Source of the DNA: Verrucomicrobiota bacterium
Lineage (GTDB): Bacteria; Verrucomicrobiota; Verrucomicrobiia; Opitutales; Opitutaceae
Length of the DNA stretch: 64,000 nucleotides
Direction: 5' to 3'
Assembly (NCBI GenBank): GCA_023446735.1
Contig: JAEXPQ010000150.1
Coordinates: 22,257 to 86,256 of the forward strand
Shown: positions 1,229 to 62,109 of the stretch, piece by piece
How the letters are laid out: every line of letters starts with the position of its first letter
Position numbering within the stretch: position 1 is the first letter of the stretch
Translations under genes and position numbers: made by a program
The notes under the pieces: model-generated
Database searches by the model: none
The model's input: the letters and a program-made list of their open reading frames with translations, nothing else
What the model was told of the DNA's origin: nothing

Positions 1229-1251
1229 CCGGAAAGGACTCTTGTTGAGCT

Positions 1252-1280
1252 CGCCGCACTTCGGTGCGGCGTTTTTTTTA
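1252..1280 (+). terminator. rho-independent terminator after second pilin gene
   Basis: GCCGCAC-TTCG-GTGCGGC hairpin (1253-1270) followed by T8 (1272-1279), 25 nt after the stop codon. Confidence 0.65.
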
Positions 1281-3223: not shown

Positions 3224-3276
3224 GGTGCTTAGTCTGCTGTGATCTCAAGATAGAATCTCGAAGCAGTCTCTTGCCG

Positions 3277-4767: not shown

Positions 4768-4805
4768 GGTTCTCGCTTCTGTTGACCGGCCAGAGAGGGG
4801 GGCGC

Positions 4806-5555: not shown

Positions 5556-5559
5556 GGGC

Positions 5560-6240: not shown

Positions 6241-6262
6241 AATGGACCGGCGGATGCGGGAA

Positions 6263-10013: not shown

Positions 10014-10022
10014 GTGTGTCGC

Positions 10023-11945: not shown

Positions 11946-12029
11946 AGGCTTCGTGAAGGTGGGGTGATAGCTGTGCTTCTGCGAGAAAACCAATTGTGAG
12001 TGAAGCGGGTGGTGTATCGTGAAGGACCC

Positions 12030-43857: not shown

Positions 43858-44174
43858 GGTTGTACGGCGCGCCGCGAGCCCGAATGGAGCAGATGTCGCC
43901 TGCGGGCGATCGGGATCGCGGTCGCGGGGCGGGCACGGTCTTGCCCGGCGCAGACGTCGGGGACCGCCGTGGGCGGACGGCGCAGGGAAGGTGTGGTTGT
44001 GGGCTTATGCTTCGGAGACCATCCCCCGTGTTTCATTAACAATGGTCGGATGTTGCTGAAGCGACGGGTTTTCCGGATTGCATCCACCAGGGAGGCTTGG
44101 CTTGGTTCGTGCTCGTCGGATCCCCTGCCGCCCGGTCGCACGCCGGGTGAACATCAACCCATACCGAAGAAACT

Positions 44175-47186: not shown

Positions 47187-47204
47187 TCCAGCTTCGTCCA
47201 ACGG

Positions 47205-47240
47205 GCGCCGGAGATTGCTCTCCGGCGCTTTTTTGTTTTC
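47205..47240 (+). terminator. rho-independent terminator after first TonB-dependent receptor
   Basis: GCGCCGGAGA-TTGC-TCTCCGGCGC (10-bp stem, 47205-47228) followed by TTTTTTGTTTT. Confidence 0.8.
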
Positions 47241-47262
47241 ATCCTGTCGATACTTGACCCCC

Positions 47263-49278
47263 ATGAAAGCGCTCCGTCTGGTCTCCCTTCTGCTCTGTCT
47301 GCCGCTCGCCCGTCTGTGGGCAGAACTGCCGCCGCCACTCCCTGTGGAGGTCTTCTTCGAGAACTCCGACATCAGCGGCCTTAGTATCTCCCCGACAGGC
47401 CGGTACTTCGCCTCCCTGCGCCCGGTCGGCGGACGGAAGCAGATCGTCGTCGTGGATCTTGAGAAGGGCACCACTGCCCGCCTCACCGACATGAAGGAGG
47501 AGAACGTGCTCGGTGTGCAGTGGCTCAAGGAGCACCGGCTGGCGTTCTTTATGCAGGTCAAGGGCCAGGAGTCCTTCGGCGTCTATGCGGTCAATGCCGA
47601 CGGCACCAATCTGACGATCGTGCGCCAAGCGACGACCGTCGATGCCAACGACCGCGTTCAGGTCCAAGGCGGGCGCGCCTCGATCCTGCACAATCTGCCG
47701 GACGATCCGAACGAGGTGATCATCGGCATGGTCCGCGGCAGCTCCGGCCTGATGGACCTCTACCGCGCCAACATTCATAAGGAGAACCGGCGCCGCATCA
47801 TCTGCCAGAATCCCGGCAAGGTACGGGACTGGGTGCTCGATTCCAAGGGGGTGCCGCGGATCGGGGTGGCCCAGGACGAACGCGCGACGGAATCGCATGT
47901 GCTCTATCGGGAAAGCGAGAAGGCCGACTGGAAGGAGATTGCCCGGTTCGGTCAGGATCAACCCTCGTGGACTCCGCTTGGTTTCGATAGCGATGACCGC
48001 ACGCTTTTCGTCTCCTCGAATATCGGTCGGGCTACCTACGCGATCTACAAGTACGACCTCGTCGCTCGCCGCCTGGGCGAAGTCGTGGTGGAGGATCCGG
48101 TCTATGATGTCGGGCGCGACGCCTACGGTTTTGACGGCGGGCTCTTGCGGCGAGGCTCAGACCGGAAGGTGATCGGCGTGAAGTACCTGGCGGATCGCGA
48201 GCGCGTGGTGTGGTTGGATCCCGAGATGGCGAAGATCCAGCAGGGGATCGACCGGGCGTTGCCGGACACGCTCAATATCGCCACCTCGTCGACCCGCGAT
48301 CTGTCCCACATGATCGTTCGCGCCTATTCCGATCGCGATCCTGGAATATACTACCTGCTGGATACAAAGAAGATGGACCTGCTGGAGTTGCTGCGGATCA
48401 ACAGCCGGGTGAAGCCGGAGCAGATGGCGTCGATGCAGCACATCGCCTACAAGGCGCGGGACGGCATGCGAATCTACGCCTATCTGACCCTGCCGGCGGG
48501 GGGGGAGCCGCGCAACCTGCCTTTGATTGTTCACCCGCACGGCGGTCCCTACGGGCCGCGCGACGAGTGGGGCTACAACTCCGATGTCCAGTTTCTGGCC
48601 AACCGCGGCTATGCCGTACTCCAGCCAAATTTCCGCGGTTCCGGGGGCTACGGCGAGGCGTACGAAAGCGCTGGCTACAAACAGTGGGGCCTCGCGATGC
48701 AGGACGATCTGACAGACGGCGTTCTGCATCTGATCGAGCAGGGGATCGTGGATCGGAACCGCGTCGGGATCTATGGCGCGAGCTATGGTGGCTACGCGGC
48801 GATGATGGCGATCATCAAGGAACCGGCTCTGTTCCGCTGCGCGATCAATTACGTCGGAGTCACGGATATCGAGATTTTGTTCGAGGGCTTCGCGGACTAC
48901 CCGCTCGTCGCCAAAGAGAGTCTGGCGCGTCGTTTCGGGCATCCGGTGCGCGACCAGGACTATATGGCGGCGAACTCGCCCGTCCGCCTCGTCGATCGCA
49001 TCCAGGCACCGGTGCTCATGGCCTATGGATTTTTTGACCCCCGGGTGAAACTCGAACACGGCGAGCGGCTGCACAACCTGATGAAGTCGAAAGGCAAGGA
49101 GGTGGAGTACATTGTTGCCGAGAACGAGGGACACGGATTCGGCAAACAGGAGAACGCAGTGTGCTTTGCCCGGAGGATCGAGGCCTTCCTTGCGCGGACG
49201 ATGACGGACCGCGCCGACTGGGGCCAGATCGGCGAATCGAAGGTGGTGGAAATGCCGGTCGGTACGCCGGTGAAGTGA
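47263..49278 (+). CDS. S9 family serine peptidase (prolyl oligopeptidase/dipeptidyl peptidase-like)
   Basis: Signal peptide MKALRLVSLLLCLPLARLWA, N-terminal beta-propeller region, nucleophile elbow IYGASYGGYAA, C-terminal ...GHGF (His). Confidence 0.88.
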   Translation: MKALRLVSLLLCLPLARLWAELPPPLPVEVFFENSDISGLSISPTGRYFASLRPVGGRKQIVVVDLEKGTTARLTDMKEENVLGVQWLKEHRLAFFMQVKGQESFGVYAVNADGTNLTIVRQATTVDANDRVQVQGGRASILHNLPDDPNEVIIGMVRGSSGLMDLYRANIHKENRRRIICQNPGKVRDWVLDSKGVPRIGVAQDERATESHVLYRESEKADWKEIARFGQDQPSWTPLGFDSDDRTLFVSSNIGRATYAIYKYDLVARRLGEVVVEDPVYDVGRDAYGFDGGLLRRGSDRKVIGVKYLADRERVVWLDPEMAKIQQGIDRALPDTLNIATSSTRDLSHMIVRAYSDRDPGIYYLLDTKKMDLLELLRINSRVKPEQMASMQHIAYKARDGMRIYAYLTLPAGGEPRNLPLIVHPHGGPYGPRDEWGYNSDVQFLANRGYAVLQPNFRGSGGYGEAYESAGYKQWGLAMQDDLTDGVLHLIEQGIVDRNRVGIYGASYGGYAAMMAIIKEPALFRCAINYVGVTDIEILFEGFADYPLVAKESLARRFGHPVRDQDYMAANSPVRLVDRIQAPVLMAYGFFDPRVKLEHGERLHNLMKSKGKEVEYIVAENEGHGFGKQENAVCFARRIEAFLARTMTDRADWGQIGESKVVEMPVGTPVK

Positions 49279-49572
49279 ACGGTTGGTATGTCTGGATCGC
49301 CTTCCATCATCTGGAAGGCGGTCCCGATGGGCTCGCTCAATCGGTAGCCACCGCCCCGCTTGCGAAGCCTCTGTGCTCGCTTGGTTCAATCCATGAGACC
49401 GTCTCGACGGTCCTCCCGTTCCCCTGCCAGCGAGGCGGGCTTGATGTTTTCACGTACCAAACCGCCGCGCGTTGCGCAAGCCGGCGGTATGCGTTGGCTG
49501 GCTCGATTCGTGCATTGCGATTGCGAATCGTTCGCGATTTCTACCGAATCCCGATCCCACATCAAAGAAACT

Positions 49573-52245
49573 ATGAACAAACCGAAAGCTCGAACCAAGG
49601 TGCTGACCCGTACCTTGAGCCACTTCGCGTGGTCATCCCTGTTGTTGACCGCTGCCCTTCAGGCGCAGACGACGCCCAGCTCTTCCGCCCCAGCCTCGGA
49701 GGTGGAGAGTGAAGACGATGGTGTCGTGATCCTCGACAAGTTCGAGGTAGTGGGTTCGCGAATCAAGCGCATCGACGCTGAGGGGCCGAATCCCGTTGTT
49801 GCCATTCACCGCACCGACCTGAACCTCGCCGGATACTCCAGCGTCGGCGAAGCCCTGCGCTCGATGCCGATCATCAGCGGCTCCTCCCTCCGGCCCGCGG
49901 CGTCGAACAACAGCTTCACCCCTGGCGCCTCGACCGTGAATATCCGCGGCTTGGGCAACAACAACGTCCTCGTCCTGCTCAATGGGCGCCGGGCGGCTCC
50001 GTTGAGCACGCCTGGTTTCGATGGCCTTCAGACAATGTTCGACCTGAACAGCGTGCCGACGGCTGCGATCGATTCGATCGAGGTTCTGAAGGACGGTGGC
50101 TCCGCGATCTACGGCTCGGACGCCGTTTCTGGTGTCATCAACATCAAGATGCGCAAGAACTTCAGCGGGGTGTCCGTCGCCGGCGAGTTCGGCAACAATG
50201 TCGGGACCGACGCATGGGAGAAATCCTTCTCGATGGTCCACGGGACGACTGCGGGAAAGACATCTTTGCTTGTCGCCCTGGACTTCAAGGCGGCCGATCG
50301 ACTCCGAGATCGCCAGTACACATTCTCGGCGAACGCCGACGCCACGGATCGCGGCGGCGACGATCTGCGCAGCTACGCCGGTTATCCGGCGATGGTGTAC
50401 GTTCCGAGTCTGGACTGGTATTACACGCTCAGCGCCCCCAAGGCCAATCCGACGCTGGCCGATTTCGTGGAGGCCGATGTGAGCCACGGTACGTACAACT
50501 TCCAGTCCGTCACCGACTTGACTCCAAAGACCCGGGACTACGGTTTCTATTCCCATCTCGATCATACCTTCAACGAGCACGTCACGGGCTTCATGGAGGT
50601 CTCCTTCCGCCGGTCGCAGTCGGAGATCGGAGCCGCCCCGAGTCCGGTCTTCAGCTATAGCGAGAACGGTACCGGACCGAACACCGGCACTTTGACAATC
50701 CCGTCGACCAATCCGAACAACCCGTTCGGCGAAGATCTCGAGGATGAGTGGTATGCCCGCCTGGTGCATGCGGGCAACCGCATCAACGACGTGACGTCCG
50801 ACACGCCGCGCGTGCTGGTGGGTGTCCGAGGTGAGATCCCCTCATCCGACACTTGGTCTTGGGAGACGGCTGCGCTGTATTCGAAGAATCGTGCCAAGAA
50901 CCTCAACCGCGGCACGGTCTTCGACGACCTCTACCAAGCGGCGTTGAACGGAGTCTCGATCGGCGGCCAGACCTTGTTCGCCAACCCCTTCGGACCGGAA
51001 GACCCCCGCGTGACCGCCACCTACGTTGGCGATAACCCGACGGGCTCCAGCTTCGTCCTCAAGGCCTGGGACTTTTCGACCAGCGGCAAGCTCTTCGATT
51101 TGCCCGCGGGTCAGCTTGGTCTGGCGCTCGGCGGCGAGGTTCGCGCTGAGGACTTCGCCAACAACCAGACGGTCCAAAACGAGACCGGCAACATCGTCGG
51201 TGGGGCCGAGGGTTCCTCGGTTTCGGGGGATCGCGAAGTTTACGCCTTCTACACCGAGTTGGCGGTTCCGATCGTGAAAAACCTCGAAGCGCAGCTGGCG
51301 GGTCGCTTCGAGCACTATTCCGACTTCGGCTCTGCAACCAAGCCGAAGGTCGCGCTCTCGTACAAGGCCGCGCCGTGGCTGCGCTTCCGGACCTCGTTCG
51401 GTCAGTCGTTCCTCGCGCCGAATCTGTCCTATCTCTACACCGAGCAGATCACGACCTTCTCCTCCTCGCCGCTGGTGGACCCCAAGCGTCCGAACGATGC
51501 GCCGCGGCAGATTCAGACCAAGTCTGGCGGCAATCCGGATCTCCAGCCCGAAGAGACGGACACCCTTTACGCCGGCTTTCAATTTGAGCCTGCCGGAGCA
51601 TTCAAAGGCCTGGCTGTCTCGGTTGATTGGTTCCAGTTCAAGCAGAAGAACCTGATCGCCCAGCTCGGCGATAGCTTCATCCTCGCTCACGAGGACGAGT
51701 TGCCGGGCAAGGTTGTGCGCAACTCGCCGGCGTCCGGTGAGACCAACGGCGTTATTAGCTACATCAACGACGCGTACGACAACTTCGACGGCCTCACGTA
51801 TCGTGGTTTTGATTTCGATGTCCGCTACGACTTCGAGACGGCCTCTTGGGGTACGTTCCGTCTCAACGCCGCCGCGACCTTCATGAGTCAGTACGCCTAC
51901 AAGGCGAGCGACGGCATCAGCCAGTTGGCGGGCGAGTACAACCAGCCCAAATGGCGTAGCACCTACTCGGTCGAGTGGCGCCGCGGCAACTGGGGTGCCG
52001 CGGTGTTCTGCGAACACGTCGGCACGTTCCGAAACTACGACGAGTCCGGCTTCATCGGAAATCAGTTCCTCGTGAATCCGCAGGTTTCCTACTCGGGCTT
52101 CGCCCGCACCAAGGTCACCGTCGGGGCGCGCAATGTGTTCGACCGCGATCCTCCCTTCGACCGCCACTCGTCGACCGCATGGAACGACAATATCCACAAT
52201 CCGCAGAAGGCGTTCGTCTACGTGCGACTCGAGCGTGAGTGGTAA
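49573..52245 (+). CDS. TonB-dependent receptor (paralog of 44175-47186)
   Basis: LDKFEVVGSRIKRIDAEGPNPV...LLNGRR...IDSIEVLKDGGSAIYGSDAVSGVINIKM and terminal ...YVRLEREW. It shares the LLTAALQ(S/A)QT signal-peptide end and the AAGAAACTATGA start context with the first receptor. Confidence 0.92.
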   Translation: MNKPKARTKVLTRTLSHFAWSSLLLTAALQAQTTPSSSAPASEVESEDDGVVILDKFEVVGSRIKRIDAEGPNPVVAIHRTDLNLAGYSSVGEALRSMPIISGSSLRPAASNNSFTPGASTVNIRGLGNNNVLVLLNGRRAAPLSTPGFDGLQTMFDLNSVPTAAIDSIEVLKDGGSAIYGSDAVSGVINIKMRKNFSGVSVAGEFGNNVGTDAWEKSFSMVHGTTAGKTSLLVALDFKAADRLRDRQYTFSANADATDRGGDDLRSYAGYPAMVYVPSLDWYYTLSAPKANPTLADFVEADVSHGTYNFQSVTDLTPKTRDYGFYSHLDHTFNEHVTGFMEVSFRRSQSEIGAAPSPVFSYSENGTGPNTGTLTIPSTNPNNPFGEDLEDEWYARLVHAGNRINDVTSDTPRVLVGVRGEIPSSDTWSWETAALYSKNRAKNLNRGTVFDDLYQAALNGVSIGGQTLFANPFGPEDPRVTATYVGDNPTGSSFVLKAWDFSTSGKLFDLPAGQLGLALGGEVRAEDFANNQTVQNETGNIVGGAEGSSVSGDREVYAFYTELAVPIVKNLEAQLAGRFEHYSDFGSATKPKVALSYKAAPWLRFRTSFGQSFLAPNLSYLYTEQITTFSSSPLVDPKRPNDAPRQIQTKSGGNPDLQPEETDTLYAGFQFEPAGAFKGLAVSVDWFQFKQKNLIAQLGDSFILAHEDELPGKVVRNSPASGETNGVISYINDAYDNFDGLTYRGFDFDVRYDFETASWGTFRLNAAATFMSQYAYKASDGISQLAGEYNQPKWRSTYSVEWRRGNWGAAVFCEHVGTFRNYDESGFIGNQFLVNPQVSYSGFARTKVTVGARNVFDRDPPFDRHSSTAWNDNIHNPQKAFVYVRLEREW

Positions 52246-52326
52246 GTCCCGTCAGTTCGCCGGATCCCGCGCTACCGCCCGGTTTCCCGGGCGGTGTATG
52301 AACGGGGGGCGGTAGTGAGATCTCAC

Positions 52327-52352
52327 AAGGCCCGGTCGAAAGACCGGGCCTT
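52327..52352 (+). terminator. strong hairpin downstream of second receptor (possible terminator, no T-tract)
   Basis: AAGGCCCGGTC-GAAA-GACCGGGCCTT, an 11-bp perfect stem with a GAAA tetraloop. Confidence 0.45.
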
Positions 52353-52504
52353 GCTGTGGGCGGAGGCCGCGAACGAAGTTGGGGCGGTTTGAGAGCCGAT
52401 CCCACCGGCCGCAAACGCCACCGCGGCTTCTTGTACTGCGGGGAAAGATAGGAGCTCTGGTGGTTGTCGCTTACACGCCAGGTCGTCATCGTCCCAAAAC
52501 CGGG

Positions 52505-54497
52505 GTTAGCCCGACTTCCGCAACTGGCGGGGTCGGGAAACGCAAGTCGTTGATCCAGCGCCCGACCATGGCAAAGGTCGGGACTACACAGGCCTGCGCG
52601 CCGGACCGATCTTTGGCGGGGGTTGCGCGGGGAGCGAGCGGCCGAGCCGGTCGAGCAGGAGCGCGATGTCGTGGTCGGGTTCGGTGCGGCGGCGCAGGAG
52701 CAGCTCGCGGCCGTCGGTGGTGGGGATGATCACGTCGAGCATCTGCAGGCCGGCGAGTTTCTCGAGGACCACGCGCGGCATCAGGCCCGGGGCGAGCGGG
52801 CGCAGCTGTTGGCGCAGGGTGATGGACAAGCAGTACGCCAGGAAGGCGACGAAGAGGTGCGCCTCGATGCGCTCGGGCTTGTGATGGAAGATCGGACGCA
52901 GCCCCAGGTCGCCCTTGAGGGTGCGGAAGGCTTCCTCGACGTGGCACAGCTGCATGTAGCAACGCCAGACCAACGCAGGGTCGTCGGCGCCCAGGTTGGT
53001 GCGCAGCAGGTAGCGGCCCTCGCGGCAATGGGCCCGCCACAGCGCGGCACGATCGAGCTGGTAATCGAGGGCGCCGGTGGCGGCGACCTCGACCTTCACC
53101 AGACCGGTGACGACGCGTCCGGCGGCGTGCTGCGCGGCGCCGAGCTTCTTGAGCAACGTGTCGCGGTCGGGCTCTTGTTTCTTCAGTTCGCCCAAACGTT
53201 TCCAGTACGCCCGCAGCAGCCGGCGGCGCATGCCGCGCTCCTTGCCGATGCGCGCGCCGCTTTCGGCCAGCACGTAGAGTTCGCCCTCCTGCGGGAGCAG
53301 TTTCACGCGCAGCCGCTCGCGGACCTCGCTCCAGGGCAGTGCGGCGAGCTCGGCCTCCAGCTTGGTCAAGCGCCCCTTGGGCGTACCGACCAGATAGCGC
53401 ACCTGCGGATCGGCCGCGCGCAGTTCGGCAAGGACCTTCTCGGTGGGGATGCCGCGGTCCATGACCCAGATCCGTTCGGCCTGGCCGTAGCGGCGCTGGA
53501 TCGTGGCGAGCATGTCGCGCAGCGTGGTTTTGTCGGCGGTGTTGCCGGGCAGCATCTCGTAAGCCAAGGGCAGCCCGTCGGGGGTGACCACCAGCGCCAC
53601 CACGACCTGGACACAGTCGCCGCGCTTGTCGCGGCTGTAGCCGAAGCGCCGCGGATCGTCGGGGTCGGCGGGCACGGCGCACTCGAAGTAGGTGCTGGTC
53701 AGGTCGTAGAGCAGCACCTCGAACTTCGCCGCGAACAGGTCGCTCCAGCGCGCGCGCAGATGCCCGAAGAGCTCCTCCTTGTGCGGCAGCAAGAGGTCGA
53801 GGCAGCGGTAGAGCGTGTCGTCCTGCGCCGCACGCTCGTCGACCCCCAGCAGGTCGGGCAACGCGGTCGTGCCGAACCAATGCCGGTGCAGCCGCCACTC
53901 GCTGCCCGGCGCGAGCAGCCGGTAGATCGTCAGGATGCGCAGGATCTTCTCCCAATCCGTGCCCTCGCGGCCCAGGGGCAGACGCGCGCCGAAGAAGTCG
54001 TCCAAATGCAGCGTGCGCCAGAGTTCGTCGGCCAGCCAACACGCGCCCCACTGCCGGGGCTGCTCCAGCCGCAGTCGGTCGAGACGGACCTGCACCGCGT
54101 CGGCCCCGTCGGGCGGGAGCCGGTCGGCCGGGAAGAGCGCGAGCTGGCGCGATTGCCCGCTGTCCTCGTCGAAGACGCGGATGCTGCGCTGCCACGCCTC
54201 CCGCTGGCTGTCGTTGATCTCGCCCAGGTAGAGCACGTGGCGATGCGCCACCTTCCCGTCGCTATACCGACGGCTCTCCACCACCGACCAGGAGCGGTGC
54301 TCTTTGCCGTCCTTCTTGCGGATACGACACTTCAGGAACACGCCCGCAGTTTACCAGCCCGCCACCGGCGTGGATAGAGGGCAGGTCGGGACTACATGCA
54401 CTTTGGCAAAGTGCGATCACGCCCAGCCAACGACTTGCGCGCGCCAATCCCCCGAAAATACCCGGAAATCGCCGCCAGTTGCGGAAGTCGGGTTAGC
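52505..54497 (-). mobile_element. IS1634-family insertion sequence (~2.0 kb) with 26-bp imperfect terminal inverted repeats
   Basis: Left end GTTAGCCCGACTTCCGCAACTGGCGG (52505-52530). Reverse complement of the right end (54472-54497) is GCTAACCCGACTTCCGCAACTGGCGG, a 24/26 match. A second subterminal inverted match CGCAAGTCGTTG lies at both ends. It carries a single long transposase ORF. Confidence 0.85.
52584..54341 (-). CDS. IS1634-family (IS4 superfamily) DDE transposase
   Basis: 585 aa, uninterrupted. N-terminus MFLKCRIRKKDGKEHRSWSVVESRRYSDGKVAHRHVLYLGEINDSQREAW is the characteristic opening of this transposase family as I recall it. Confidence 0.85.
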   Translation of the reverse strand: MFLKCRIRKKDGKEHRSWSVVESRRYSDGKVAHRHVLYLGEINDSQREAWQRSIRVFDEDSGQSRQLALFPADRLPPDGADAVQVRLDRLRLEQPRQWGACWLADELWRTLHLDDFFGARLPLGREGTDWEKILRILTIYRLLAPGSEWRLHRHWFGTTALPDLLGVDERAAQDDTLYRCLDLLLPHKEELFGHLRARWSDLFAAKFEVLLYDLTSTYFECAVPADPDDPRRFGYSRDKRGDCVQVVVALVVTPDGLPLAYEMLPGNTADKTTLRDMLATIQRRYGQAERIWVMDRGIPTEKVLAELRAADPQVRYLVGTPKGRLTKLEAELAALPWSEVRERLRVKLLPQEGELYVLAESGARIGKERGMRRRLLRAYWKRLGELKKQEPDRDTLLKKLGAAQHAAGRVVTGLVKVEVAATGALDYQLDRAALWRAHCREGRYLLRTNLGADDPALVWRCYMQLCHVEEAFRTLKGDLGLRPIFHHKPERIEAHLFVAFLAYCLSITLRQQLRPLAPGLMPRVVLEKLAGLQMLDVIIPTTDGRELLLRRRTEPDHDIALLLDRLGRSLPAQPPPKIGPARRPV

Positions 54498-54586
54498 TGG
54501 GAGGTTGATGAGGGCAACCGGCAACGACAAACCGATCTCCTTGGGGAGCGTTGATTGTCGGTAAGCGGGGCAATGCGATGAGGTAT

Positions 54587-55192
54587 CTATCCCCCCCCCG
54601 CGACAGTCATCGCTCCCTGCCGCGTGGATTGATGGGTGTCGTTGCGGCGCTGCTCGTCCTTGAAGTCCATCCACGCGTTGCCCCGCCCTGCCCCTGCTGG
54701 TCGTTCTTGGGCCGGAAGCTCTTCAACGAAGCCCACGCCTCGATCAACGTGCCATCGACGCTGAAGTGCTCGTCGGAGATCCAGCCATGTGAGGTAGGCC
54801 AACTCGACGACCTCGGCGAAGAACAGGTCGGCCACGGCGAGGGAGATCAGGCGCCCCTAGTTCTTGCTGAAGACCGAGGCGTCGAAGACGGCCTGCTCCA
54901 AGGGCGGGTCGATGAACCAGCGGAACAGCAGGTCGGTCTGCAGCCGCGCGCACAGCTGCTGGTCCGAACGCACCGTGTAGAGTGCCTGCAGTACCTTTGC
55001 CCTCAATAGGGGATCCGGCGGGTTCCAGGGTGCGCCGTCCTCCGCGTCGATCTCGTCGAAGTGCGCATCCATCTCCCGCAGCACCTCGTCGCACATCCGC
55101 TTGATCGCTCGGATCGGATGATCGGCGGCGATCAACGTCTCCACGTTGATCAGACTCACGAAACTGGGCTGGACGGGACGATGGCCTCGCAT
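54587..55192 (-). pseudogene. IS5/IS1182-like transposase remnant (N-terminal half, stop + frameshifts)
   Basis: DHPIRAIKRMCDEVLREMDAHFDEI...LLRAKVLQALYTVRSDQQLCARLQTDLLFRWFI...VFSKN is an InsH/DUF772-type N-terminal domain ending at an in-frame TAG (54857-54859). The continuation (...SDEHFSVDGTLIEAWASLKSFRPK..., ...DFKDEQRRNDTHQST) is only readable by switching frames. A C9 run lies at 54591-54599. The gene is cut off at the IS1634 right end. Confidence 0.75.
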
Positions 55193-55437
55193 GGTGACTC
55201 CAAAAACCAAGAACACGCAGTTTCGTTCAATCAATCTCGGACTTTCCCAGCAGCCTGCTAAGCAGCAACTCGTTGATAGCCATTTTACGGGTGAGCGGAG
55301 AAAAAGTGTTGATGAAAAGGTGTTGTTCGGAAGCGTTTTTTTCTAACGCGGATTCGGCCCACACGGATTAGAGCGTAGTCAATAACCAGAAACTTACTTC
55401 AGGGAAAACCTGAGTTGGTGGCTGCTGCCTGTTCGTA

Positions 55438-56319
55438 GTGTGTAAAATGCGCAAGTACCCAAGCTTGGAATCTGACCTGCCGGAGTGGTTCCATCCATTT
55501 CGGCCACCTCGAAACTTCTCATGCATGAGAAAGGCTGTACCGAAGCGAACAGCAGAACACCCCGTAGATGGAGGATTGATCGTCGCTTCTAGTGCCCTTG
55601 TTCGACAAGAGTTAAGGGCGGGAGTTTGTGCAGTTGTGAAGAGTGCCCCTGTGCGTGTCGTCCAAAGGGGGGAGTGTGCGCTCGTCACTCTACTGGAAAA
55701 GCAGGTCAACATCCTTGTGATTGGTCTGTCACTTCCCGACTGGGATGGGATCGACGTCGCATTGGCTGCGCAACGTATTGGTGCGGCCCGGCAGATTGTG
55801 CTGTGTGTGGACCGTTCGTGCGAGCGGGACTTTGATCTGCTGCATGTAAGTGAAAGCACGCTACTCTCGAGTTCTTGTGTTTATCCGGGGTACTGGCTTA
55901 GGCAGGAGGTCGTGTTTGCGACGGGTTTGGGCCGTAGCAGTGGTCGGCACGTGAGTGCGGATCTCCAGAGAGATTGGCGTCGACGTAGGGTTGAACGGCG
56001 GTCCTATCTTCACCGATTAACACCCGCCCAGGTGCGTTTTCTGGCGTTCGCAGGCGGCGGCCTCGGGGATAAAGAAGTTTCTGACCATTTTAGGATCAGC
56101 GTGCATACAGCGCGCGCACACCGTAAAGATGTCATGAGAAAGTTAGACCTTCACTCTCATGCGGAAATGATTCGCTACGCGTCCATCTGCGGGCTGGTGC
56201 GTTTCACTGAAGAGCGCGTTCTGCGCCCGGGGTTCGATGTTGACCAACTTATGGCTTCAGCGGCAAAGCAAATAGCTCTTCGCGCAAAGAAGTGTCCTTT
56301 AGTTGCACCGTCGGTTTGA
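55438..56319 (+). CDS. LuxR/GerE-type HTH transcription regulator with degenerate receiver-like N-domain
   Basis: C-terminal LTPAQVRFLAFAGGGLGDKEVSDHFRISVHTARAHRKDVMRKLDLHSHAEMIRYA is a GerE-type HTH. The N-terminal domain has receiver-like beta/alpha spacing, but the acidic pocket is replaced (LIVASSALV instead of DD; ILVIGLSLPDWDG instead of D). The start is uncertain (ATG 55438 or internal MRKAV). Confidence 0.75.
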   Translation: MCKMRKYPSLESDLPEWFHPFRPPRNFSCMRKAVPKRTAEHPVDGGLIVASSALVRQELRAGVCAVVKSAPVRVVQRGECALVTLLEKQVNILVIGLSLPDWDGIDVALAAQRIGAARQIVLCVDRSCERDFDLLHVSESTLLSSSCVYPGYWLRQEVVFATGLGRSSGRHVSADLQRDWRRRRVERRSYLHRLTPAQVRFLAFAGGGLGDKEVSDHFRISVHTARAHRKDVMRKLDLHSHAEMIRYASICGLVRFTEERVLRPGFDVDQLMASAAKQIALRAKKCPLVAPSV

Positions 56320-56420
56320 ATGCCGGCCCCTCCCCCTCTTGGCGACCGATCTCTATGCTCTACGAAGCTTGTTCGGAGAAGCCGAGAAAACCATTCCCAC
56401 TCTGTGCGTAGCCCCAAAAC

Positions 56421-56429
56421 GGGGGGGGG
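56421..56429. repeat. G9 homopolymer in regulator-adaptor intergenic region
   Basis: ccaaaac-GGGGGGGGG-caag, 94 nt upstream of the HlyD-type gene ATG, in a locally ~50% GC context. Confidence 0.9.
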
Positions 56430-56522
56430 CAAGTTTGGTTCGTGGATCCCCTAGCTCAAATTGGGGTATTCGGTGGAATTGTGGGCGAACGGGTGGAGGT
56501 ATGAGAATCAGATAAAGTCGGA

Positions 56523-57713
56523 ATGGATAATGACCGAATGCTTCCTGCGGTTGCGCGCGCCCGCGATACAGTAGAGGCGCTAAACGCCGAGAACGGAACT
56601 CCCCGCAACTGGGTGTTCTGGTCGGCCGTTGCAGCTTCGGCAGCGTGTTTGATCGCCCTTCCCTTGGTGGAAGTAACCGTGACGGTGCGAGCCCCCGGAA
56701 TTGTCAGACCGGTCGAAGCTCCAGTGGAGATCCGAGCGCCGGTATCAGGTTGTCTCGCTGAAGTATTTGCAAAGGAGAATGTTGCGGTCTCTGCGAATGA
56801 ACCTCTATTCGAGATCGGCGCGCCTGAAAGTGACGAGCGAATGGAGACCCTGCAGCGACGCAGCGACGAACTTGAACCACTGCTGCACGATCTTGTCGCC
56901 CTTACAGAAGCCAATGACCTCAAAGAGGTGATTGTGCCTTCCGCGGTTGCGGAAGGCGCTCTCCGGACTCCACTTTACCGTAGTGAGCTTCTGAGGCTTC
57001 GCTCGGTTCTTGCGGCGTCAAATGTTGAGCGAGCCCAACTCGCCCGGGAGCTAGAGCGCACGAAGGCTCTTCACTCGCGGAGGTTAATCCCCGATAAAGA
57101 CCTCGACGCGGCGTGTGACGCGATCGGCCGTATCGAAGCATCTACAGATGCGACTGTTGCTGACGTTCTGGCTCGTTGGCAGGCAGAGCGGAGGAACTGT
57201 GAGGACACGAGAAAGTCAATTCAGAGCGATATCCGTGAACTGGTGGAGCTAAGGGCTCGCCGGCTTGTGCGGGCCCCTGTTGCTGGGGACCTTATCGGCT
57301 TTAGTGGTTGGAAGAAAGGGGTGTTCGTTGCTGAGGGACAGGTTATTGCGGCAATCTCGCCTCCAGGGGCCATGCGGGTAGAGACGTCGATCCGTTCCCG
57401 GGACCTTGCGCTACTGGCTCCGGGCCTTCCGGCGCGTGTTGAATGCGAAGCATTTCCGGCCACCGAATGGGGGTACCTCGATGGCTTTGTCGAGTCGATC
57501 GATCGTGATGTCAGATGGATCGATGGCCTCGCCAGTCGACGAATGCTGGTCGGCTTCATGCCAACTGGGCCAGAGGGTGGCGCAAAGTATGCGAATCGAT
57601 TGCAGAAGGGGATGGGCGCTGTTGTTCGAGTCGTCGTCGGTCGTCGCAGTCTCTGGCACTATCTCACCGAAAGTACAAATCGTTGGCTGGAGGAGAGTCC
57701 GAATGGAAAATAG
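56523..57713 (+). CDS. HlyD-family periplasmic adaptor (bacteriocin/microcin secretion accessory protein, CvaA-like)
   Basis: N-terminal TM segment WVFWSAVAASAACLIALPLV. Lipoyl-like VRAPGIVRPVEAPVEIRAPVSGCLAEVFAKENVAVSANEPLFEI. A coiled-coil middle. VRAPVAGDLIGF...GQVIAAISPPGAMRVETSIRSRDLALLAPGLPARVE beta-barrel domain. Confidence 0.85.
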   Translation: MDNDRMLPAVARARDTVEALNAENGTPRNWVFWSAVAASAACLIALPLVEVTVTVRAPGIVRPVEAPVEIRAPVSGCLAEVFAKENVAVSANEPLFEIGAPESDERMETLQRRSDELEPLLHDLVALTEANDLKEVIVPSAVAEGALRTPLYRSELLRLRSVLAASNVERAQLARELERTKALHSRRLIPDKDLDAACDAIGRIEASTDATVADVLARWQAERRNCEDTRKSIQSDIRELVELRARRLVRAPVAGDLIGFSGWKKGVFVAEGQVIAAISPPGAMRVETSIRSRDLALLAPGLPARVECEAFPATEWGYLDGFVESIDRDVRWIDGLASRRMLVGFMPTGPEGGAKYANRLQKGMGAVVRVVVGRRSLWHYLTESTNRWLEESPNGK

Positions 57714-57781
57714 GCGAGTCAACCAATCGCGGATGCATGTGCACTGCTGCTCTGCTTGCTCGCTTCGAGTAAAGGTCGAAT

Positions 57782-57810
57782 TTTACTACGCCAATATGGT
57801 GTAGTATATT
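57782..57810 (+). promoter_or_regulatory. candidate sigma-70-type promoter for the peptide genes
   Basis: TTTACT (57782-57787), 17-nt spacer, TATATT (57805-57810), 26 nt upstream of the first peptide ATG, in a ~35% GC stretch. The consensus for this phylum is assumed, not known. Confidence 0.35.
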
Positions 57811-57835
57811 GTAAGGCAAAACAAAACGGTAACCC

Positions 57836-58024
57836 ATGAATATGCAAAAATGCTTAGATGAATCGGAGCTCGCATCAATTGGCGGTGGCTTTGCCCCCTT
57901 GGGGGGTGGCAACTTGCCGCAGCCCCCGTCGAATACTGGTATAGATTTCACATTTAACTTTCTCTGGATGCTCCGAAACCTTTCGGAGCCCAGCAATACT
58001 TGGAGGCCGCGCGAGAGTGATTGA
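57836..58024 (+). CDS. double-glycine-leader precursor peptide 1 (class II bacteriocin/microcin-like)
   Basis: 62 aa. The leader MNMQKCLDESELASIGGG fits the GG-leader consensus relative to cleavage after G18 (-1/-2 GG, -4 I, -7 L, -8 E, -12 L). The 44-aa core is FAPLGGGNLPQPPSNTGIDFTFNFLWMLRNLSEPSNTWRPRESD. Confidence 0.7.
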   Translation: MNMQKCLDESELASIGGGFAPLGGGNLPQPPSNTGIDFTFNFLWMLRNLSEPSNTWRPRESD

Positions 58025-58078
58025 GCGGGATTCGGGCTCCCGAGCAATTTGTCCTGATCTAAAATTTTAGCGAACAGA

Positions 58079-58279
58079 ATGTCCCAAACAAACACTAAAA
58101 ATATGAAAGAGCTCACAGTAAATGAGATGCAAGCAATACAGGGGGGGCTGGCTCCTCTTGTGTATATTGGTTCCCTTCTTGTTGGCGCGGGGGGGTACGT
58201 GCTAAAAGATATATATGACAACTGGGGGGTTTTTAAGGAAGGTTTTGCGGATGGGCAGAGTGTCTGGAAAAAAAAGTAA
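58079..58279 (+). CDS. double-glycine-leader precursor peptide 2
   Basis: 66 aa (or 58 from the internal MKEL start). The leader ...MKELTVNEMQAIQGG has -4 I, -7 M, -8 E, -12 L. The 43-aa core LAPLVYIGSLLVGAGGYVLKDIYDNWGVFKEGFADGQSVWKKK has a GxxxG-type hydrophobic helix and a cationic tail. Confidence 0.75.
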   Translation: MSQTNTKNMKELTVNEMQAIQGGLAPLVYIGSLLVGAGGYVLKDIYDNWGVFKEGFADGQSVWKKK

Positions 58280-58281
58280 CA

Positions 58282-58461
58282 ATGGATACACTAAATGATA
58301 GCCAGATGGCTCTTGTTAATGGCGGTGGCGCGGAGGCTGTCCGCGATATTGCCCAGTTTTGTGGCGGATTTTGGGAGGGGCTAAAGATTTTTGGCCCTGG
58401 CCCAGATGGTCACTTTACTGGGGCGATAGCAATGGGGATCGTCTCTGCCAAGAGCAAATAA
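58282..58461 (+). CDS. double-glycine-leader precursor peptide 3 (below the 60-aa ORF-track cutoff)
   Basis: Hand-translated as MDTLNDSQMALVNGG|GAEAVRDIAQFCGGFWEGLKIFGPGPDGHFTGAIAMGIVSAKSK (59 aa). The leader has -4 V, -7 M, -12 L. It starts 3 nt after the stop of peptide 2. Confidence 0.65.
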   Translation: MDTLNDSQMALVNGGGAEAVRDIAQFCGGFWEGLKIFGPGPDGHFTGAIAMGIVSAKSK

Positions 58462-58473
58462 TCTATATCTCGG

Positions 58474-58504
58474 GTCGCCGGGCAAGATCTGCTCGGCGAC
58501 TTTT
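58474..58504 (+). terminator. weak rho-independent terminator/attenuator after peptide 3
   Basis: GTCGCCG...CGGCGAC 7-bp stem (58474-58480 / 58494-58500) followed by TTTT. Confidence 0.4.
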
Positions 58505-58515
58505 CGATTGACTAC

Positions 58516-58644
58516 ATGAGAATCTCCAACGATGAACGAAGCGCGATCCTTGGGATCGTTAGCGGTTGGATTGTTGCAATTTCGCTAGTTGAAAACTGGA
58601 CTGCGCTCGTGCGGTTGGTGGCGATATTGATGAAGTGGAGTTGA
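58516..58644 (+). CDS. 42-aa hydrophobic ORF (speculative immunity/accessory peptide)
   Basis: Hand-translated as MRISNDERSAILGIVSGWIVAISLVENWTALVRLVAILMKWS. It has one or two hydrophobic helices. It sits between the precursor peptides and the exporter, where immunity genes often lie. There is no other support. Confidence 0.25.
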   Translation: MRISNDERSAILGIVSGWIVAISLVENWTALVRLVAILMKWS

Positions 58645-58928
58645 CTCGATCCGTTCTGGTTGGGGCGCAAGTTCTTTGGAATGTTGTGCCGAAGTAGCTC
58701 TCGCATTTTCGGTAGCGCGAATATTCGACCGATTTCAGGCTTTAGTGACGGAACGCGGTTGCTGGTACGTCGTTTGTTTGCGTCTCTGGCCCGCGTAAAG
58801 CATGCCTCGCGAGCAGGGTGAGTCGATTTGTCTGGCTCAGCGGGTCAGCTTGTTCATCAGTTTTGTTCGTTGTCGCCGGTGGGCGCTATAGCATGCAAGA
58901 AGATCGCTGATGTGTGGAAATCAAACTC

Positions 58929-61058
58929 ATGAGACAACGAGACCAGTCTGACTGTGGGCCAACCTGCCTGGCCTATCTTGCCCGCCGTTACGGCCTGCGG
59001 GTTTCGATTGCTCAATTGCGCTTGGCTGGTGGAACGGACCGGCAGGGCACGTCTGCGCTTGGTTTGGTTAATGCGGCGAAGACAATAGGCCTATCCGCTC
59101 GGGGATTTCGCGCTGAGTTGAGTTCGGTCGGCGAGGCGCCTGTGCCGTTTATAGCCCATTGTCGCTTACCCAATCAGTTGCTTCACTATGTTGTCGTTTG
59201 TGGGTTTCGGATTGGGGTGCGCGTTCGGGTTATGGACCCGGCTGTGGGTCGTGAAGAATGGTGGCCTTGGGAGCAGTTTTCTGCTGTGTTTACTGGGGTG
59301 CTCTTGTTGGTTTCCCCAGAACCGTCACTCGCCCCAAGCGATAGGCGCGATGTCGGTCGGACTCCGCTCCGTCGTCTTTGGTTGTTGTTGCGGCCGCATC
59401 GGACGCTTTGGCTTCAGGCATTTGTCGGCGCGGTGTTCTCTACTGCATTGGCGCTTGCGACATCCCTTTATGTCGAGAATTTGATGGACCGTGTTATTCC
59501 TGACAGCGATCGCCGTTTGCTTATCCTAATGAGTTTAGGCATGCTTGTCGTGCTTGGTTTGCGAGTAATGCTCGGTGTGCTGCAGAACCGTCTCGCTTTA
59601 TATACGGCGCAGCGTATCGATGCGAGTCTCATCCTGGGTTATTACAAACATCTGCTTGGGTTGCCGCAAGTTTTCTTCGATTCGATGCGAGCCGGGGAGA
59701 TAGTGTCCAGGGTTAGTGATGCTGTTAAGATCCGTGAGTTTCTCAATAGCACTTTGGTTAATATTGCTCTTCAGCCGCTTATTCTGATTTTTGCCCTGGT
59801 TGCGATGTTTATTTACTCTTGGAAACTGGGCCTTATTTCAGTAGCCTTGGTTCCGTTGTTGGCGGCCGTATGGTGGTTCGCCAATCGATGCAACCGACGG
59901 CAACACCGAGCCCTCATGGAGCGTAGTGCTGATTTCGACGCTCAACTGGTCGAGTCGCTTCATGCGCAACGCGTGATTCGTGGATTTGGTCTCGAAGAAG
60001 AGTTTGCGCTCCGAAACGAGAGTCGTCTTGTCCGGCTGTTGCGCACAGTCCGGGGAGTGGCGAACACTGGAATACTGACCGGTTCCGCAAGTGCGCTAAT
60101 AACCCAGGGGTTCTCTCTGCTATTGCTTTCGTTTGGGACCTCTCTTGTTCTTTGTACGGAGATCACTCCGGGTGAGCTTTTCTCATGCTATACGTTGGCT
60201 GGATACCTTACAGGCCCTTCGTTGGCGCTAGTCGGGCTCAATGCCAGTATTCAGCAAGCGCTAGTGGCGACGGATCGTCTGTACGAAATCATGGACCTGG
60301 AGCTTGAGAAGGAGTCGGGTTCGGTTCACATGGTTGAGCGCCATGCGAAGTGGCCGATTGTGTTCGACAGGGTTACATACCGCCATGCGGGGCGGCTGCC
60401 TGTGCTCGCCGACTTTTCCGCGACTATTGCTCCAGGGGCGGTATCTGTGTTTACCGGTGCATCGGGATGTGGGAAAAGCACAGCATTGGCTTTATTGCAG
60501 CGTCTATACCGACCCGAGACAGGTCGGATTATGATCGGGCAGATTGATCTAGCCCACTATACCTTCGGCAGCTTAACTGCAGCGATTGGTGTCGTGCCGC
60601 AAAAGGTGGATCTGCTTGCTGGTACGATCTTGGAGAACTTGGTGCCTGGGACAGCCGAACCAGACCTGGAGGCGCTAGTTCGTTTGTGCCGAGAGGCAGG
60701 TTTCATGGATTTTATAGATCGCCAACCTCAAGGCTTCTTCACGCTATTGAATGAGAACGGGCTGAATTTGTCGGGTGGGCAGCGCCAAAAGCTTGCGATT
60801 ATCCGCGCTCTGTTTCGGCGACCTTTGATTCTTTTGCTTGATGAACCGAGTTCTGCACTGGACGAAGAAGCCGAGTCTCAGCTAATTGAGATGCTCCGAC
60901 GGAGGCGCGAACATGGCACCACCATCGTGATGGCTGCGCACAGCCCCCGACTTCTCTCTATCGCAGACAATTTAATCCATATTGGCGCGCGCCCGAGTGC
61001 AGCGGAGCGGAGTTGCGATCATATGGCTCTATGTCGTACAGAGGCTGCGATGAAGTAG
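58929..61058 (+). CDS. peptidase-C39-containing ABC transporter (PCAT/AMS-type bacteriocin maturation and export protein, CvaB/ComA-like)
   Basis: The N-terminal C39 domain has all catalytic residues: Q-x5-C (RQRDQSDCGPTCLA), His (LLHYVVVCG) and Asp (VMDPAVG). Six TM segments follow. The NBD has GASGCGKST, LSGGQRQ and LLLDEPSSALD. GTG 58914 is an alternative start. Confidence 0.9.
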   Translation: MRQRDQSDCGPTCLAYLARRYGLRVSIAQLRLAGGTDRQGTSALGLVNAAKTIGLSARGFRAELSSVGEAPVPFIAHCRLPNQLLHYVVVCGFRIGVRVRVMDPAVGREEWWPWEQFSAVFTGVLLLVSPEPSLAPSDRRDVGRTPLRRLWLLLRPHRTLWLQAFVGAVFSTALALATSLYVENLMDRVIPDSDRRLLILMSLGMLVVLGLRVMLGVLQNRLALYTAQRIDASLILGYYKHLLGLPQVFFDSMRAGEIVSRVSDAVKIREFLNSTLVNIALQPLILIFALVAMFIYSWKLGLISVALVPLLAAVWWFANRCNRRQHRALMERSADFDAQLVESLHAQRVIRGFGLEEEFALRNESRLVRLLRTVRGVANTGILTGSASALITQGFSLLLLSFGTSLVLCTEITPGELFSCYTLAGYLTGPSLALVGLNASIQQALVATDRLYEIMDLELEKESGSVHMVERHAKWPIVFDRVTYRHAGRLPVLADFSATIAPGAVSVFTGASGCGKSTALALLQRLYRPETGRIMIGQIDLAHYTFGSLTAAIGVVPQKVDLLAGTILENLVPGTAEPDLEALVRLCREAGFMDFIDRQPQGFFTLLNENGLNLSGGQRQKLAIIRALFRRPLILLLDEPSSALDEEAESQLIEMLRRRREHGTTIVMAAHSPRLLSIADNLIHIGARPSAAERSCDHMALCRTEAAMK

Positions 61059-61116
61059 GTTGTTTGCTCCAGTTGGTGGCGCCAACCCGGCGAGATCATT
61101 AGGCGGGTTTGGACGC

Positions 61117-62109
61117 TCAGAAGAGCGCGCCGGCGGCGACGCCCACGGCGCTGATCGGACCCTGGTCGCTCATGCCGTCGAGCGCGCGGTCGGCCTTGCG
61201 GACCACGCCCTGCACATCCTTGTAGAGCTGCTCGTCGGTGAGCAGCTTGCCGAGGGTGCCCTGGCCGCTGTTGAGCTTGGTCGAGAGGTCGCGGAAGTTG
61301 GCGACGGTGAGCTTCAGGTTGTCGGCGGTGGCCTGGTCGTAGAGCAGCGTGCCCACGGCGCCCTGGCCGGACTTCACGTGGTCGATGATGCCGCGGGTGT
61401 CGGCGACGAAGGTCTTCGCCTCGCCGGCGGCGGAGCGGATCTCGGCGATGGCGGCGAGCAGTTCGTCGTGGGCGGTGGGCTCGTTGATGAGCTTGCCGAT
61501 GGTGCCCTTGCCGGAGCGGATCTCGGTGGTGATCGCGTTGAGGTTGTCGATCGTGCGCGTGAGGTTCTCGCTGTTGTTGGTCACCAGCGTGTCCAGCTTC
61601 TGGAAGAGACCGCCCTGACCGCCGGCCGCGCCGGTCATGCCGCTGATGCCGGAGACGGCGCCCTTGATGTCGCCGGCCACGCTGCCGAGGTCGGCGAGGA
61701 TGGTGTTGATGTCGGCGCTCTCCTTGGTGGCGAGCTGGCCTCCGGCCTCGAGATAGCCGGCCTCCTTGGTGCCGAAATCCAGCGAGATGTAGCCGCCGCC
61801 GAGCAGGCCGGCCATGGCGATGGTGGCGGTGGCGTCCTTGGCGACGCGGGTGTCGTTGTCGAGAAGCAGCACCGCCTCGGCGTGGCCGTCGGCCAGGCGG
61901 GTCTCCTTGACGGAGCCGATGCGCACGCCGGCCTGGCGGACATCGTCGCCGGGCTTGAGCTCCTTGAGGGTGTGGAAGCGGGCGACGACGGCGTAGCCCT
62001 GCTGGCGGGCGAAGGTGCCGCCGTTGAGGGCCACGTAGGTGACCCAGAGCAGCGCGACGCCGATGAGGAAGAAAAGGCCGACGCGGGCCGACATTTGGGC
62101 GTTGTTCAT
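61117..62109 (-). CDS. mlaD: MlaD/MCE-family substrate-binding protein
   Basis: N-terminal TM segment, then the MCE domain YAVVARFHTLKELKPGDDVRQAGVRIGSVKETRL...AVLLLDND, and a long helical C-terminal extension. Confidence 0.8.
   Translation of the reverse strand: MNNAQMSARVGLFFLIGVALLWVTYVALNGGTFARQQGYAVVARFHTLKELKPGDDVRQAGVRIGSVKETRLADGHAEAVLLLDNDTRVAKDATATIAMAGLLGGGYISLDFGTKEAGYLEAGGQLATKESADINTILADLGSVAGDIKGAVSGISGMTGAAGGQGGLFQKLDTLVTNNSENLTRTIDNLNAITTEIRSGKGTIGKLINEPTAHDELLAAIAEIRSAAGEAKTFVADTRGIIDHVKSGQGAVGTLLYDQATADNLKLTVANFRDLSTKLNSGQGTLGKLLTDEQLYKDVQGVVRKADRALDGMSDQGPISAVGVAAGALF

Follow-up and report, generated by a model that had tools for sequence, protein, structure and literature searches.

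We analysed a stretch of 64,000 nucleotides (hereafter, the window) from contig JAEXPQ010000150.1 of the Verrucomicrobiota assembly GCA_023446735.1, which contains an AT-rich island with seven intact open reading frames (ORFs) in the same orientation (Table 1). In order, they encode a LuxR/NarL-type regulator, a HlyD-family adaptor, three small precursors with double-glycine (GG) leaders (pep1, pep2 and pep3, of the families that we designate pepC, pepA and pepB, respectively), a 42-amino acid (aa) membrane protein and a peptidase-containing ATP-binding cassette transporter (PCAT). The host is a metagenome-assembled genome (MAG) of the Opitutaceae, and the named relatives of the MlaD protein encoded beside the island are from Opitutaceae or Nibricoccus, in agreement with the Verrucomicrobia-like host proposed in an earlier note on this DNA. 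The same note had recognized this gene order, which our Pfam, NCBIfam and PDB searches and the leader pattern bear out, and had likened it to class II bacteriocin and class II microcin loci, whose architecture matches the gene content that we found. As detailed below, the island is very probably a cassette for the maturation and export of GG peptides that was acquired by horizontal transfer.

Table 1. Features of the AT-rich island and its borders, with positions referred to the window.
Feature	Position	Strand	Characteristics
AT-rich island	55235-61060	+	5.8 kb; seven intact ORFs
Non-coding leader of the island	55235-55524	+	49% GC (0.493); the composition shift begins here
LuxR/NarL-type regulator, degenerate (pseudo-)receiver domain	55525-56319	+	264 aa as called; ORF open from GTG 55438
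HlyD-family periplasmic adaptor (membrane fusion protein), type I secretion-like	56523-57713	+	PF13437 (HlyD_3), 45.3 bits (cut-off 22.2)
pep1, pepC precursor	57836-58024	+	62 aa; leader MNMQKCLDESELASIGGG; Pro-rich, hydrophilic core of 44 aa
pep2, pepA precursor	58079-58279	+	66 aa (58 aa from ATG 58103); GG leader; core of 43 aa
pep3, pepB precursor	58282-58461	+	59 aa; 15-aa GG leader MDTLNDSQMALVNGG; core of 44 aa with GxxxG motifs and one Cys
Single-helix membrane protein, candidate immunity/accessory	58516-58644	+	42 aa; best 19-aa hydropathy window 1.75
PCAT (C39 peptidase, six-helix transmembrane domain, nucleotide-binding domain)	58929-61058	+	709 aa as called; alternative GTG start 58914
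Right junction	61059-61116		58 bp; PCAT stop 61058, convergent mlaD stop 61117
Complete IS1634-family insertion sequence (context, outside the cassette)	52507-54495	-	
IS1634 transposase ORF	52584-54341	-	NF033559, 293.7 bits (cut-off 100); DDE_Tnp_1 match; third-position GC 0.91, host-like
IS1182/IS5-family transposase remnant	54857-55234	-	N-terminal DUF772 part only; PF05598, 47.8 bits

A search of the 3000 start-stop combinations (35 aa or longer) that the window contains found the GG-leader pattern [LIVMF]x3[EQD][LIVMF]x2[LIVMF]xG[GAS] in just four distinct ORFs, three of which are the tandem small ORFs of the island. Their leaders carry hydrophobic residues at positions -12, -7 and -4, Glu or Gln at -8 and GG at -2/-1; in pep1 these are Leu (-12), Glu (-8), Leu (-7) and Ile (-4) followed by GG, and the hydrophobic spacing favours a predicted cut after GGG. 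The pep2 product passes the curated models TIGR03949 (class IIb, lactobin A/cerein 7B; 25.2 bits, cut-off 21.5) and TIGR01847 (bacteriocin signal; 17.8 bits, cut-off 15.7), while with TIGR03949 pep1 stays below the cut-off (15.8 bits) and pep3 gives no match. None of the three peptides matches a microcin family in Pfam or NCBIfam. The gene calls of NCBI and ENA, as in L002 (9175-9533), shorten pep2 to 58 aa and pep3 to 51 aa; the 51-aa call for pep3 is probably wrong, and the 59-aa ORF right, because the shorter one leaves a 7-aa leader that lacks the -12 position. Likewise, pep1 and the 42-aa ORF have no exact sequence in the protein collection, and are uncalled in the three loci examined for this.

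The core of pepA is a hydrophobic helix followed by YVLKDIYDNWGVFKEGFADG, and it contains the motifs SLLVG and GFADG; pepB contains GFWEG and GHFTG, and cores of its family start with (D/G)(S/A)xxx(R/K)D(I/L)xQF(I/C)GG. The pepA product is 58% identical to the peptide P0134, and its relatives P0133 and P0269 are named by NCBI as 'lactobin A/cerein 7B family class IIb bacteriocin'. With a profile of the pepA family, an exhaustive search of 1.84 billion representatives retrieved 97 at E<=1e-3; these are mostly small peptides, and the remainder are long proteins with many matched stretches that are probably spurious. The C-terminal motif K[DG][IV]x[DN][NH]WxxFKxG was present in all 26 pepA-family peptides that we inspected. 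Two base pairs separate pepA from pepB in the window and, among the loci of related genomes used in our comparisons (designated with L-numbers), pepB also stands right after pepA in L100, L014, L095, L097 and L101. Homologues of pepC, in turn, lie directly 3' of the HlyD gene in L100, L014, L096, L095, L012 and L101, and of the related loci examined only L097 lacks the peptide. Compared with the nearest cassette (L100+L011), the four small ORFs of the island show proportions of nonsynonymous differences (pN) of 0.26-0.44 and saturated proportions of synonymous differences (pS) of 0.72-0.84, with values of 0.33 and 0.84 for pep1, whose C-terminus diverges from its homologues, and of 0.30 and 0.78 for pep3. 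Because pN is far below the saturated pS, these four ORFs appear to be under purifying selection.

The last gene of the island encodes the putative exporter, which shows Pfam matches to Peptidase_C39 (PF03412; 105 bits, cut-off 22), ABC_membrane (160 bits) and ABC_tran (85 bits) and aligns over its full length with PCAT1 (PDB 4RY2; E 1e-102) and ComA (8HF4; E 1e-84). Its catalytic Gln, Cys, His and Asp align to 'RQYDLTDCG', 'LAHFVVI' and 'ADP' of PCAT1; across 23 members of the PCAT family the His is invariant, and Gln, Cys and Asp are each kept in at least 90% of them. The motifs GASGCGKST (Walker A), LSGGQRQ (signature), LLLDEP (Walker B-Glu) and AAH (H-loop) are also present, and are invariant in the same alignment. 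The catalytic Cys and His are kept, and we therefore rejected an inactive C39-like domain such as that of HlyB; the catalytic set that the earlier note had read in this domain is thus retained. Scores with curated NCBIfam models are below their cut-offs (350 vs 853 bits for TIGR03796 and 355 vs 726 bits for TIGR01846), and we therefore assign the protein as a PCAT by its domain architecture and to no curated subfamily.

The adaptor is 64% identical to its counterpart in L100, with a pN of 0.24 and a pS of 0.72. We found no gene for a TolC-like outer-membrane factor, a histidine kinase or a modification enzyme, either in the island or in a scan of 10 large ORFs upstream of it. As deduced from the Mla and TonB-dependent receptor genes that flank the island, the host possesses an outer membrane; hence, the description of the export system as 'complete' in the earlier note was too strong, given that the island does not encode an outer-membrane channel. 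By analogy with Escherichia coli, this channel may be encoded elsewhere in the genome. The absences listed in that note thus hold, across the island and the ORFs scanned, for the outer-membrane factor, the histidine kinase and the modification enzyme, but not for an immunity gene, for which the 42-aa ORF is a candidate that is conserved in position and sequence.

The regulator possesses a GerE helix-turn-helix (PF00196; 29.6 bits, cut-off 23.5) and a weak full-length similarity to response regulators of the NarL class (E 1e-10). When aligned with the homologous regulator from L095 and with NarL from E. coli, the acidic pocket DD is changed to AS and the phospho-acceptor Asp to Gly, whereas the L095 regulator retains both the pocket and the Asp. 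Judging from this alignment, the regulator is of the pseudo-receiver type, consistent with the lack of a histidine kinase in the island, and its description as an atypical LuxR-type protein was correct. The non-coding leader that precedes it is presumed to be its promoter region. Promoter and terminator scans of the region did not yield counts above the shuffled expectation; a sigma-70-like match (TTTACT, 17 nt, TATATT) lies at 57782-57810, 26 nt 5' of the start of pep1, and such matches are likewise not above that expectation.

Homologues of the 42-aa membrane protein, of 38-47 aa and consisting of a helix followed by [NH]Wxx[IL]K, are encoded just 5' of the PCAT gene in L011, L100, L014, L095, L097 and L101; the protein is 48% identical to the L100 copy, with a pN of 0.44 and a pS of 0.72. 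By its position, we consider it a candidate immunity factor. The nearest cassette contains three small membrane-protein paralogues between pepB and the PCAT gene, one per GG peptide (L100 2174-2380, L100 2536-2652, which equals L011 200-316, and L011 342-545), and the place occupied there by two additional genes corresponds in the window to a gap of 284 bp (58645-58928), in which we found neither a convincing gene nor a credible match to the L011 paralogues. Small membrane proteins and pepA cores alike consist of a hydrophobic helix followed by [DN/S][NH]Wxx[FI]K, and hhalign compared them with a probability of 34% (pairwise E 4e-4, over 26 columns). Given this resemblance, the putative immunity protein could be a paralogue, without the leader, of the presumed toxin subunit pepA.

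The cassette is common, and annotated automatically, in MAGs of Opitutaceae and Lacunisphaera, and is thus not exotic for the phylum. The PCAT and the HlyD adaptor from the nearest cassette, L100+L011, are, respectively, 74-75% and 64% identical to those of the island. Among the best 120 matches listed, three relatives of the PCAT show 75-76% identity and well over a hundred 50-57%, and all the named ones belong to Lacunisphaera or to Opitutaceae MAGs. The order HlyD, pepC, pepA, pepB, small membrane protein and PCAT is shared by L100+L011, L014, L095 and L101, and also by L097, where pepC is missing; these cassettes occupy different chromosomal neighbourhoods. In L095 the cassette is preceded by a canonical REC+GerE regulator. 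An extra protein of ca. 300-600 aa, with no Pfam domain on record and not found in the window, is encoded in L012 (4938-6674), L095 (5653-7437) and L101 (5770-6678), between pepC and pepA or between HlyD and pepC. In L097 (positions 1-7218, from the Lacunisphaera MAG GCA_035549095), the cassette is likewise close to an mlaEFD operon, at ca. 3.4 kb upstream and with a different orientation, which may be a coincidence or reflect a preferred neighbourhood. Outside this group, a scan of species-representative genome contigs retrieved only PCATs from Pedobacter, with 41% identity, and a scan of metagenome contigs with the PCAT family alignment, in which generic ABC motifs weigh, gave among the matches listed PCATs of at most 43% identity from other lineages.

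The island differs in composition from the rest of the window. Its G+C content is 54.1%, versus 62.4% across the window, and it is the AT-richest stretch in it, since the lowest value among 495 other segments of 5.8 kb is 58.2%. In 500-nt steps, GC ranges from 0.47 to 0.60 within the island and from 0.61 to 0.71 on both sides. Likewise, G+C at third codon positions (GC3) is 0.46-0.58 in the genes for the regulator, HlyD, the three peptides, the 42-aa ORF and the PCAT, and 0.79-0.96 in the flanking genes for a TonB-dependent receptor, the transposase of an insertion sequence (IS), an IS remnant and mlaD/F/E. The tetranucleotide L1 distance between the island and the rest of the window is 0.356, which is 4.5 standard deviations over the other segments (mean 0.176, standard deviation 0.04, maximum 0.271). 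Sliding-window GC, GC3 and tetranucleotide deviation thus agree with the earlier note in that the island is AT-richer than its surroundings, but the GC of 35-42% given there was overstated: 60-nt lines within the island have a median of 55% (minimum 32%), with just 6% of them at or below 42%, compared to a median of 67% for those from the Mla operon. The window contains a second GC-poor stretch (9500-12000; 0.54-0.56), with a sulfatase-family gene (10023-11993, minus strand) that sits inside a glycosyltransferase/Wzt ABC polysaccharide cluster; regions of this kind are often compositionally atypical.

The low GC is not a property of the PCAT gene family, because homologous genes from seven other loci show a GC3 of 0.75-0.89, matching their own hosts, whereas the value for the PCAT gene of the window is 0.55; we thus rejected the composition as a family trait. 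In addition, two relatives in which the flanking genes are collinear do not have the island at this site: L098, which is the closest relative found (MlaD 89% identical), and L099 (83%). In L098 the mlaEFD operon is followed, after 737 bp, by a convergent gene for a TonB-dependent receptor, and in L099 mlaD is separated by 99 bp from a gene for an RDD-domain protein. In blastn comparisons of both loci with the window, homology spans the mla operon, ends at 61114-61117, which is the mlaD stop codon, and resumes only at ca. 43.86 kb, at the RDD gene. The absence of homology between these two points indicates that the region from 43.9 to 61.1 kb is a variable hotspot, of which the bacteriocin block is the outermost insert. 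This region (43857-61116, ca. 17 kb) contains in the window two genes for TonB-dependent receptors, one for a peptidase S9/S15-type hydrolase, the IS, the IS remnant and the island; the corresponding site contains nothing but the 99-bp gap in L099, and only the TonB-dependent receptor gene in L098. Foreign composition, host-matching GC3 of the homologues and empty sites in two relatives all agree, and the horizontal acquisition of the island, already put forward in the earlier note, is well supported. The donor is a lower-GC lineage that has not yet been sampled at high identity.

Both IS elements lie on the left side of the island. The complete IS1634-family element is bounded by inverted repeats of 24 nt with 96% complementarity (52507-52530 and 54472-54495), and the remnant, which abuts the left edge of the AT-rich island, matches only positions 6-107 of the 488 from the IS1182 profile NF033551; it is interrupted by the insertion of the complete element. 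The minus-strand ORFs further downstream of the remnant gave no family matches. As both elements have a host-like GC3, the island did not bring them along from its donor. The borders had been described as IS-flanked, with two stacked elements at the left: two elements are indeed there, but the right side has none and only a remnant is left of the inner one, while the short gap to the convergent mlaD at the right was described correctly. We found no integrase, att sites or flanking pair of IS for the island. The only repeat common to both borders is a 10-nt direct repeat, AGTTGGTGGC, with one copy near each of them (55413-55422 and 61071-61080) and ca. 0.09 occurrences expected by chance. Its candidacy as an att site was rejected and the repeat is probably due to chance, because the left copy lies ca. 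180 bp inside the AT-rich block.

We propose that the acquired cassette makes, matures and exports unmodified GG peptides, which would include a two-peptide bacteriocin, and give this statement as a whole a probability of roughly 0.7. According to this model, the C39 domain would cut each precursor after GG, and the PCAT would pump the resulting cores, of ca. 43-44 aa, across the inner membrane; the HlyD adaptor would link it to a TolC-like outer-membrane channel encoded elsewhere, in the manner of the colicin V system CvaAB-TolC. The pepA core, with its hydrophobic helix and DNWxxFKxG tail, and the GxxxG-rich pepB core could then act against related bacteria as a membrane-active pair resembling those of class IIb, from which the producer would be protected by the 42-aa membrane protein. 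The LuxR-type regulator, which lost the phospho-acceptor Asp, would control the operon without a histidine kinase, and pepC would be a third exported peptide, acting perhaps as a further toxin, as a chaperone-like partner or as a signal.

The system that we propose resembles the class IIb bacteriocins of Gram-positive bacteria (lactobin A/cerein 7B, TIGR03949) in the GG leaders, the two adjacent small precursor genes, the GxxxG-type helices, the lack of modification enzymes, the small membrane protein beside the peptide genes and the dedicated PCAT, as well as in the score of pepA with their model. Unlike in them, the host here has an outer membrane, with the consequent presence of a HlyD adaptor and need for an outer-membrane channel; besides, pepB and pepC are outside the curated models, the K[DG][IV]x[DN][NH]WxxFKxG tail of pepA is distinctive and two-peptide complementarity is here a prediction. 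It also resembles the class II microcins of the colicin V type (CvaC, with CvaA/CvaB/TolC) from Enterobacterales, in having a Gram-negative host and an unmodified GG-leader peptide encoded with a CvaB-like PCAT and a CvaA-like HlyD adaptor, in an operon order that the relatives share; an outer-membrane factor in trans and a small immunity protein, as predicted here, would be further features in common, together with a frequent location on mobile DNA (PMC9746304, PMC10233263). However, the peptides have no similarity to known microcins in Pfam or NCBIfam, the phylum is different, there are three precursors with paired pepA and pepB, and the cassette includes a LuxR-type regulator. Likewise, PCAT1 of Clostridium thermocellum (4RY2; PMC6959990) and ComA (8HF4) resemble the PCAT along their full length and in the Gln/Cys/His/Asp and ATPase motifs, but they act in bacteria without an outer membrane, without a HlyD adaptor and on unrelated cargo peptides.

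Class II microcins have been reported from Enterobacterales (PMC9746304), GG-type bacteriocin clusters with C39 transporters and HlyD proteins are outlined for cyanobacteria in PMC3140520, and mining with IIBacFinder predicts class II precursors widely across Gram-negative phyla (PMC12648112). As with the cassette of the window, the last two reports concern genome-mined GG-leader clusters with C39 ABC export in outer-membrane-bearing bacteria other than Firmicutes; Verrucomicrobia do not appear in the main text of PMC12648112. Our literature search retrieved no experimental or descriptive study on GG-leader, PCAT, microcin or bacteriocin systems in Verrucomicrobia or Opitutaceae, nor a paper describing this cassette or its peptide families. 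The suggestion of the earlier note that GG systems had not been characterised in this phylum therefore holds for experimental work within the literature searched, but the cassette is widespread in Opitutaceae and Lacunisphaera MAGs, and its pepA family is automatically annotated as class IIb.

The identity of the products is less firm than that of the export cassette: as judged from their sequences, we lean towards a two-peptide toxin, formed by pepA and pepB, with its immunity protein, in a proportion somewhat better than even. The constant adjacency of pepA and pepB, their hydrophobicity and their small-xxx-small motifs favour a bacteriocin, and the lack of a modification enzyme in the island favours unmodified peptides. 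Several observations weigh in the opposite direction. Neither pepB nor pepC matches any curated bacteriocin model, the hydrophobic helix of pepA lacks a strict GxxxG motif (having only SLLVG) and the mature peptides are near neutral, with net charges of +1, 0 and -1, rather than cationic as many class IIb peptides are. The scores of the transporter and the adaptor are below the curated cut-offs of, respectively, TIGR01193 (bacteriocin_ABC; 340 vs 523.85 bits) and TIGR01843 (72.6 vs 209 bits), and an outer-membrane factor is encoded neither in the island nor in any related locus seen. The content of the cassettes also varies, as L096 has no pepA or pepB among its ATG-start ORFs, L097 lacks pepC and in L012 pepB is missing, with pepA represented by a more distant pepA-like peptide alone. 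Finally, the window has one small membrane-protein gene, compared to three in L100+L011, so the copy of the window could be partly decayed.

That last possibility, taken to its end, would make the cassette an inactive, recently acquired and decaying passenger, without an outer-membrane partner, with a crippled regulator and with its immunity paralogues lost. The degenerate receiver domain, the 284-bp gap with no clear gene where the nearest relative has two small membrane-protein genes, the divergent C-terminus of pep1 and the IS activity that adjoins the island would all fit with this; nevertheless, the seven ORFs and the motifs for catalysis and ATPase activity are intact, every gene compared shows a pN well under its pS and pseudo-receiver regulators are often functional, and we consider inactivity improbable. 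Somewhat more credible, while still unlikely, is that the exported peptides are signals (pheromone, quorum-sensing or developmental) to which the LuxR-type regulator responds directly or indirectly. PCATs such as ComA, with which the transporter aligns, export pheromones, the regulator is the first gene of the cassette both here and in L095, pepC is hydrophilic, not membrane-like and the most consistently present of the peptides, and there are two-component genes near the cassettes of L012, L095 and L101. Against a signalling role, however, the island lacks a histidine kinase and its regulator a phospho-acceptor, pepA and pepB are hydrophobic, paired and of the GxxxG type, with pepA belonging to a curated bacteriocin family; the place usual for immunity genes holds one for a conserved, very small membrane protein, and the cassette behaves as a mobile, patchy accessory locus, like those of bacteriocins. 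As for the island not being foreign at all, its low GC being local to the gene family or its junctions a product of metagenome mis-assembly, we regard this as very improbable: related cassettes are slightly GC-poorer than their flanks (0.63 vs 0.63-0.68), the genome is a MAG and all the assemblies apparently derive from one sequencing project, but the PCAT homologues have host-like GC3 values, two relatives with collinear flanks lack the island and both junctions (IS remnant/island and island/mlaD) recur on separately listed contigs from ENA, NCBI and Logan. A more elaborate version of our proposal, also improbable in our view, is a three-peptide system extended across the Opitutaceae, in which the immunity proteins, as paralogues of pepA without the leader, would protect by mimicking or intercepting the toxin and the hydrophilic pepC would be a secreted signal that feeds back on the kinase-less pseudo-receiver regulator; if true, it would represent a GG-peptide quorum circuit in an outer-membrane-bearing phylum.

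In all, the proposal of a GG-peptide cassette with a two-peptide bacteriocin reveals no new mechanism, and the island would rather be an uncharacterised member of a well-known kind of system. It also illustrates neatly the insertion of a bacteriocin locus into a variable hotspot flanked by conserved genes, for which both the empty site and the compositional signature are at hand. The Opitutaceae are an abundant lineage in freshwater and soil, and we know of no experimental study on peptide-mediated antagonism in this family. Our analysis delineates a cassette that recurs, with three peptide families as yet uncharacterised, and would extend the export of unmodified GG-leader peptides by PCAT and HlyD proteins to the Opitutaceae and, with them, to the Verrucomicrobiota.

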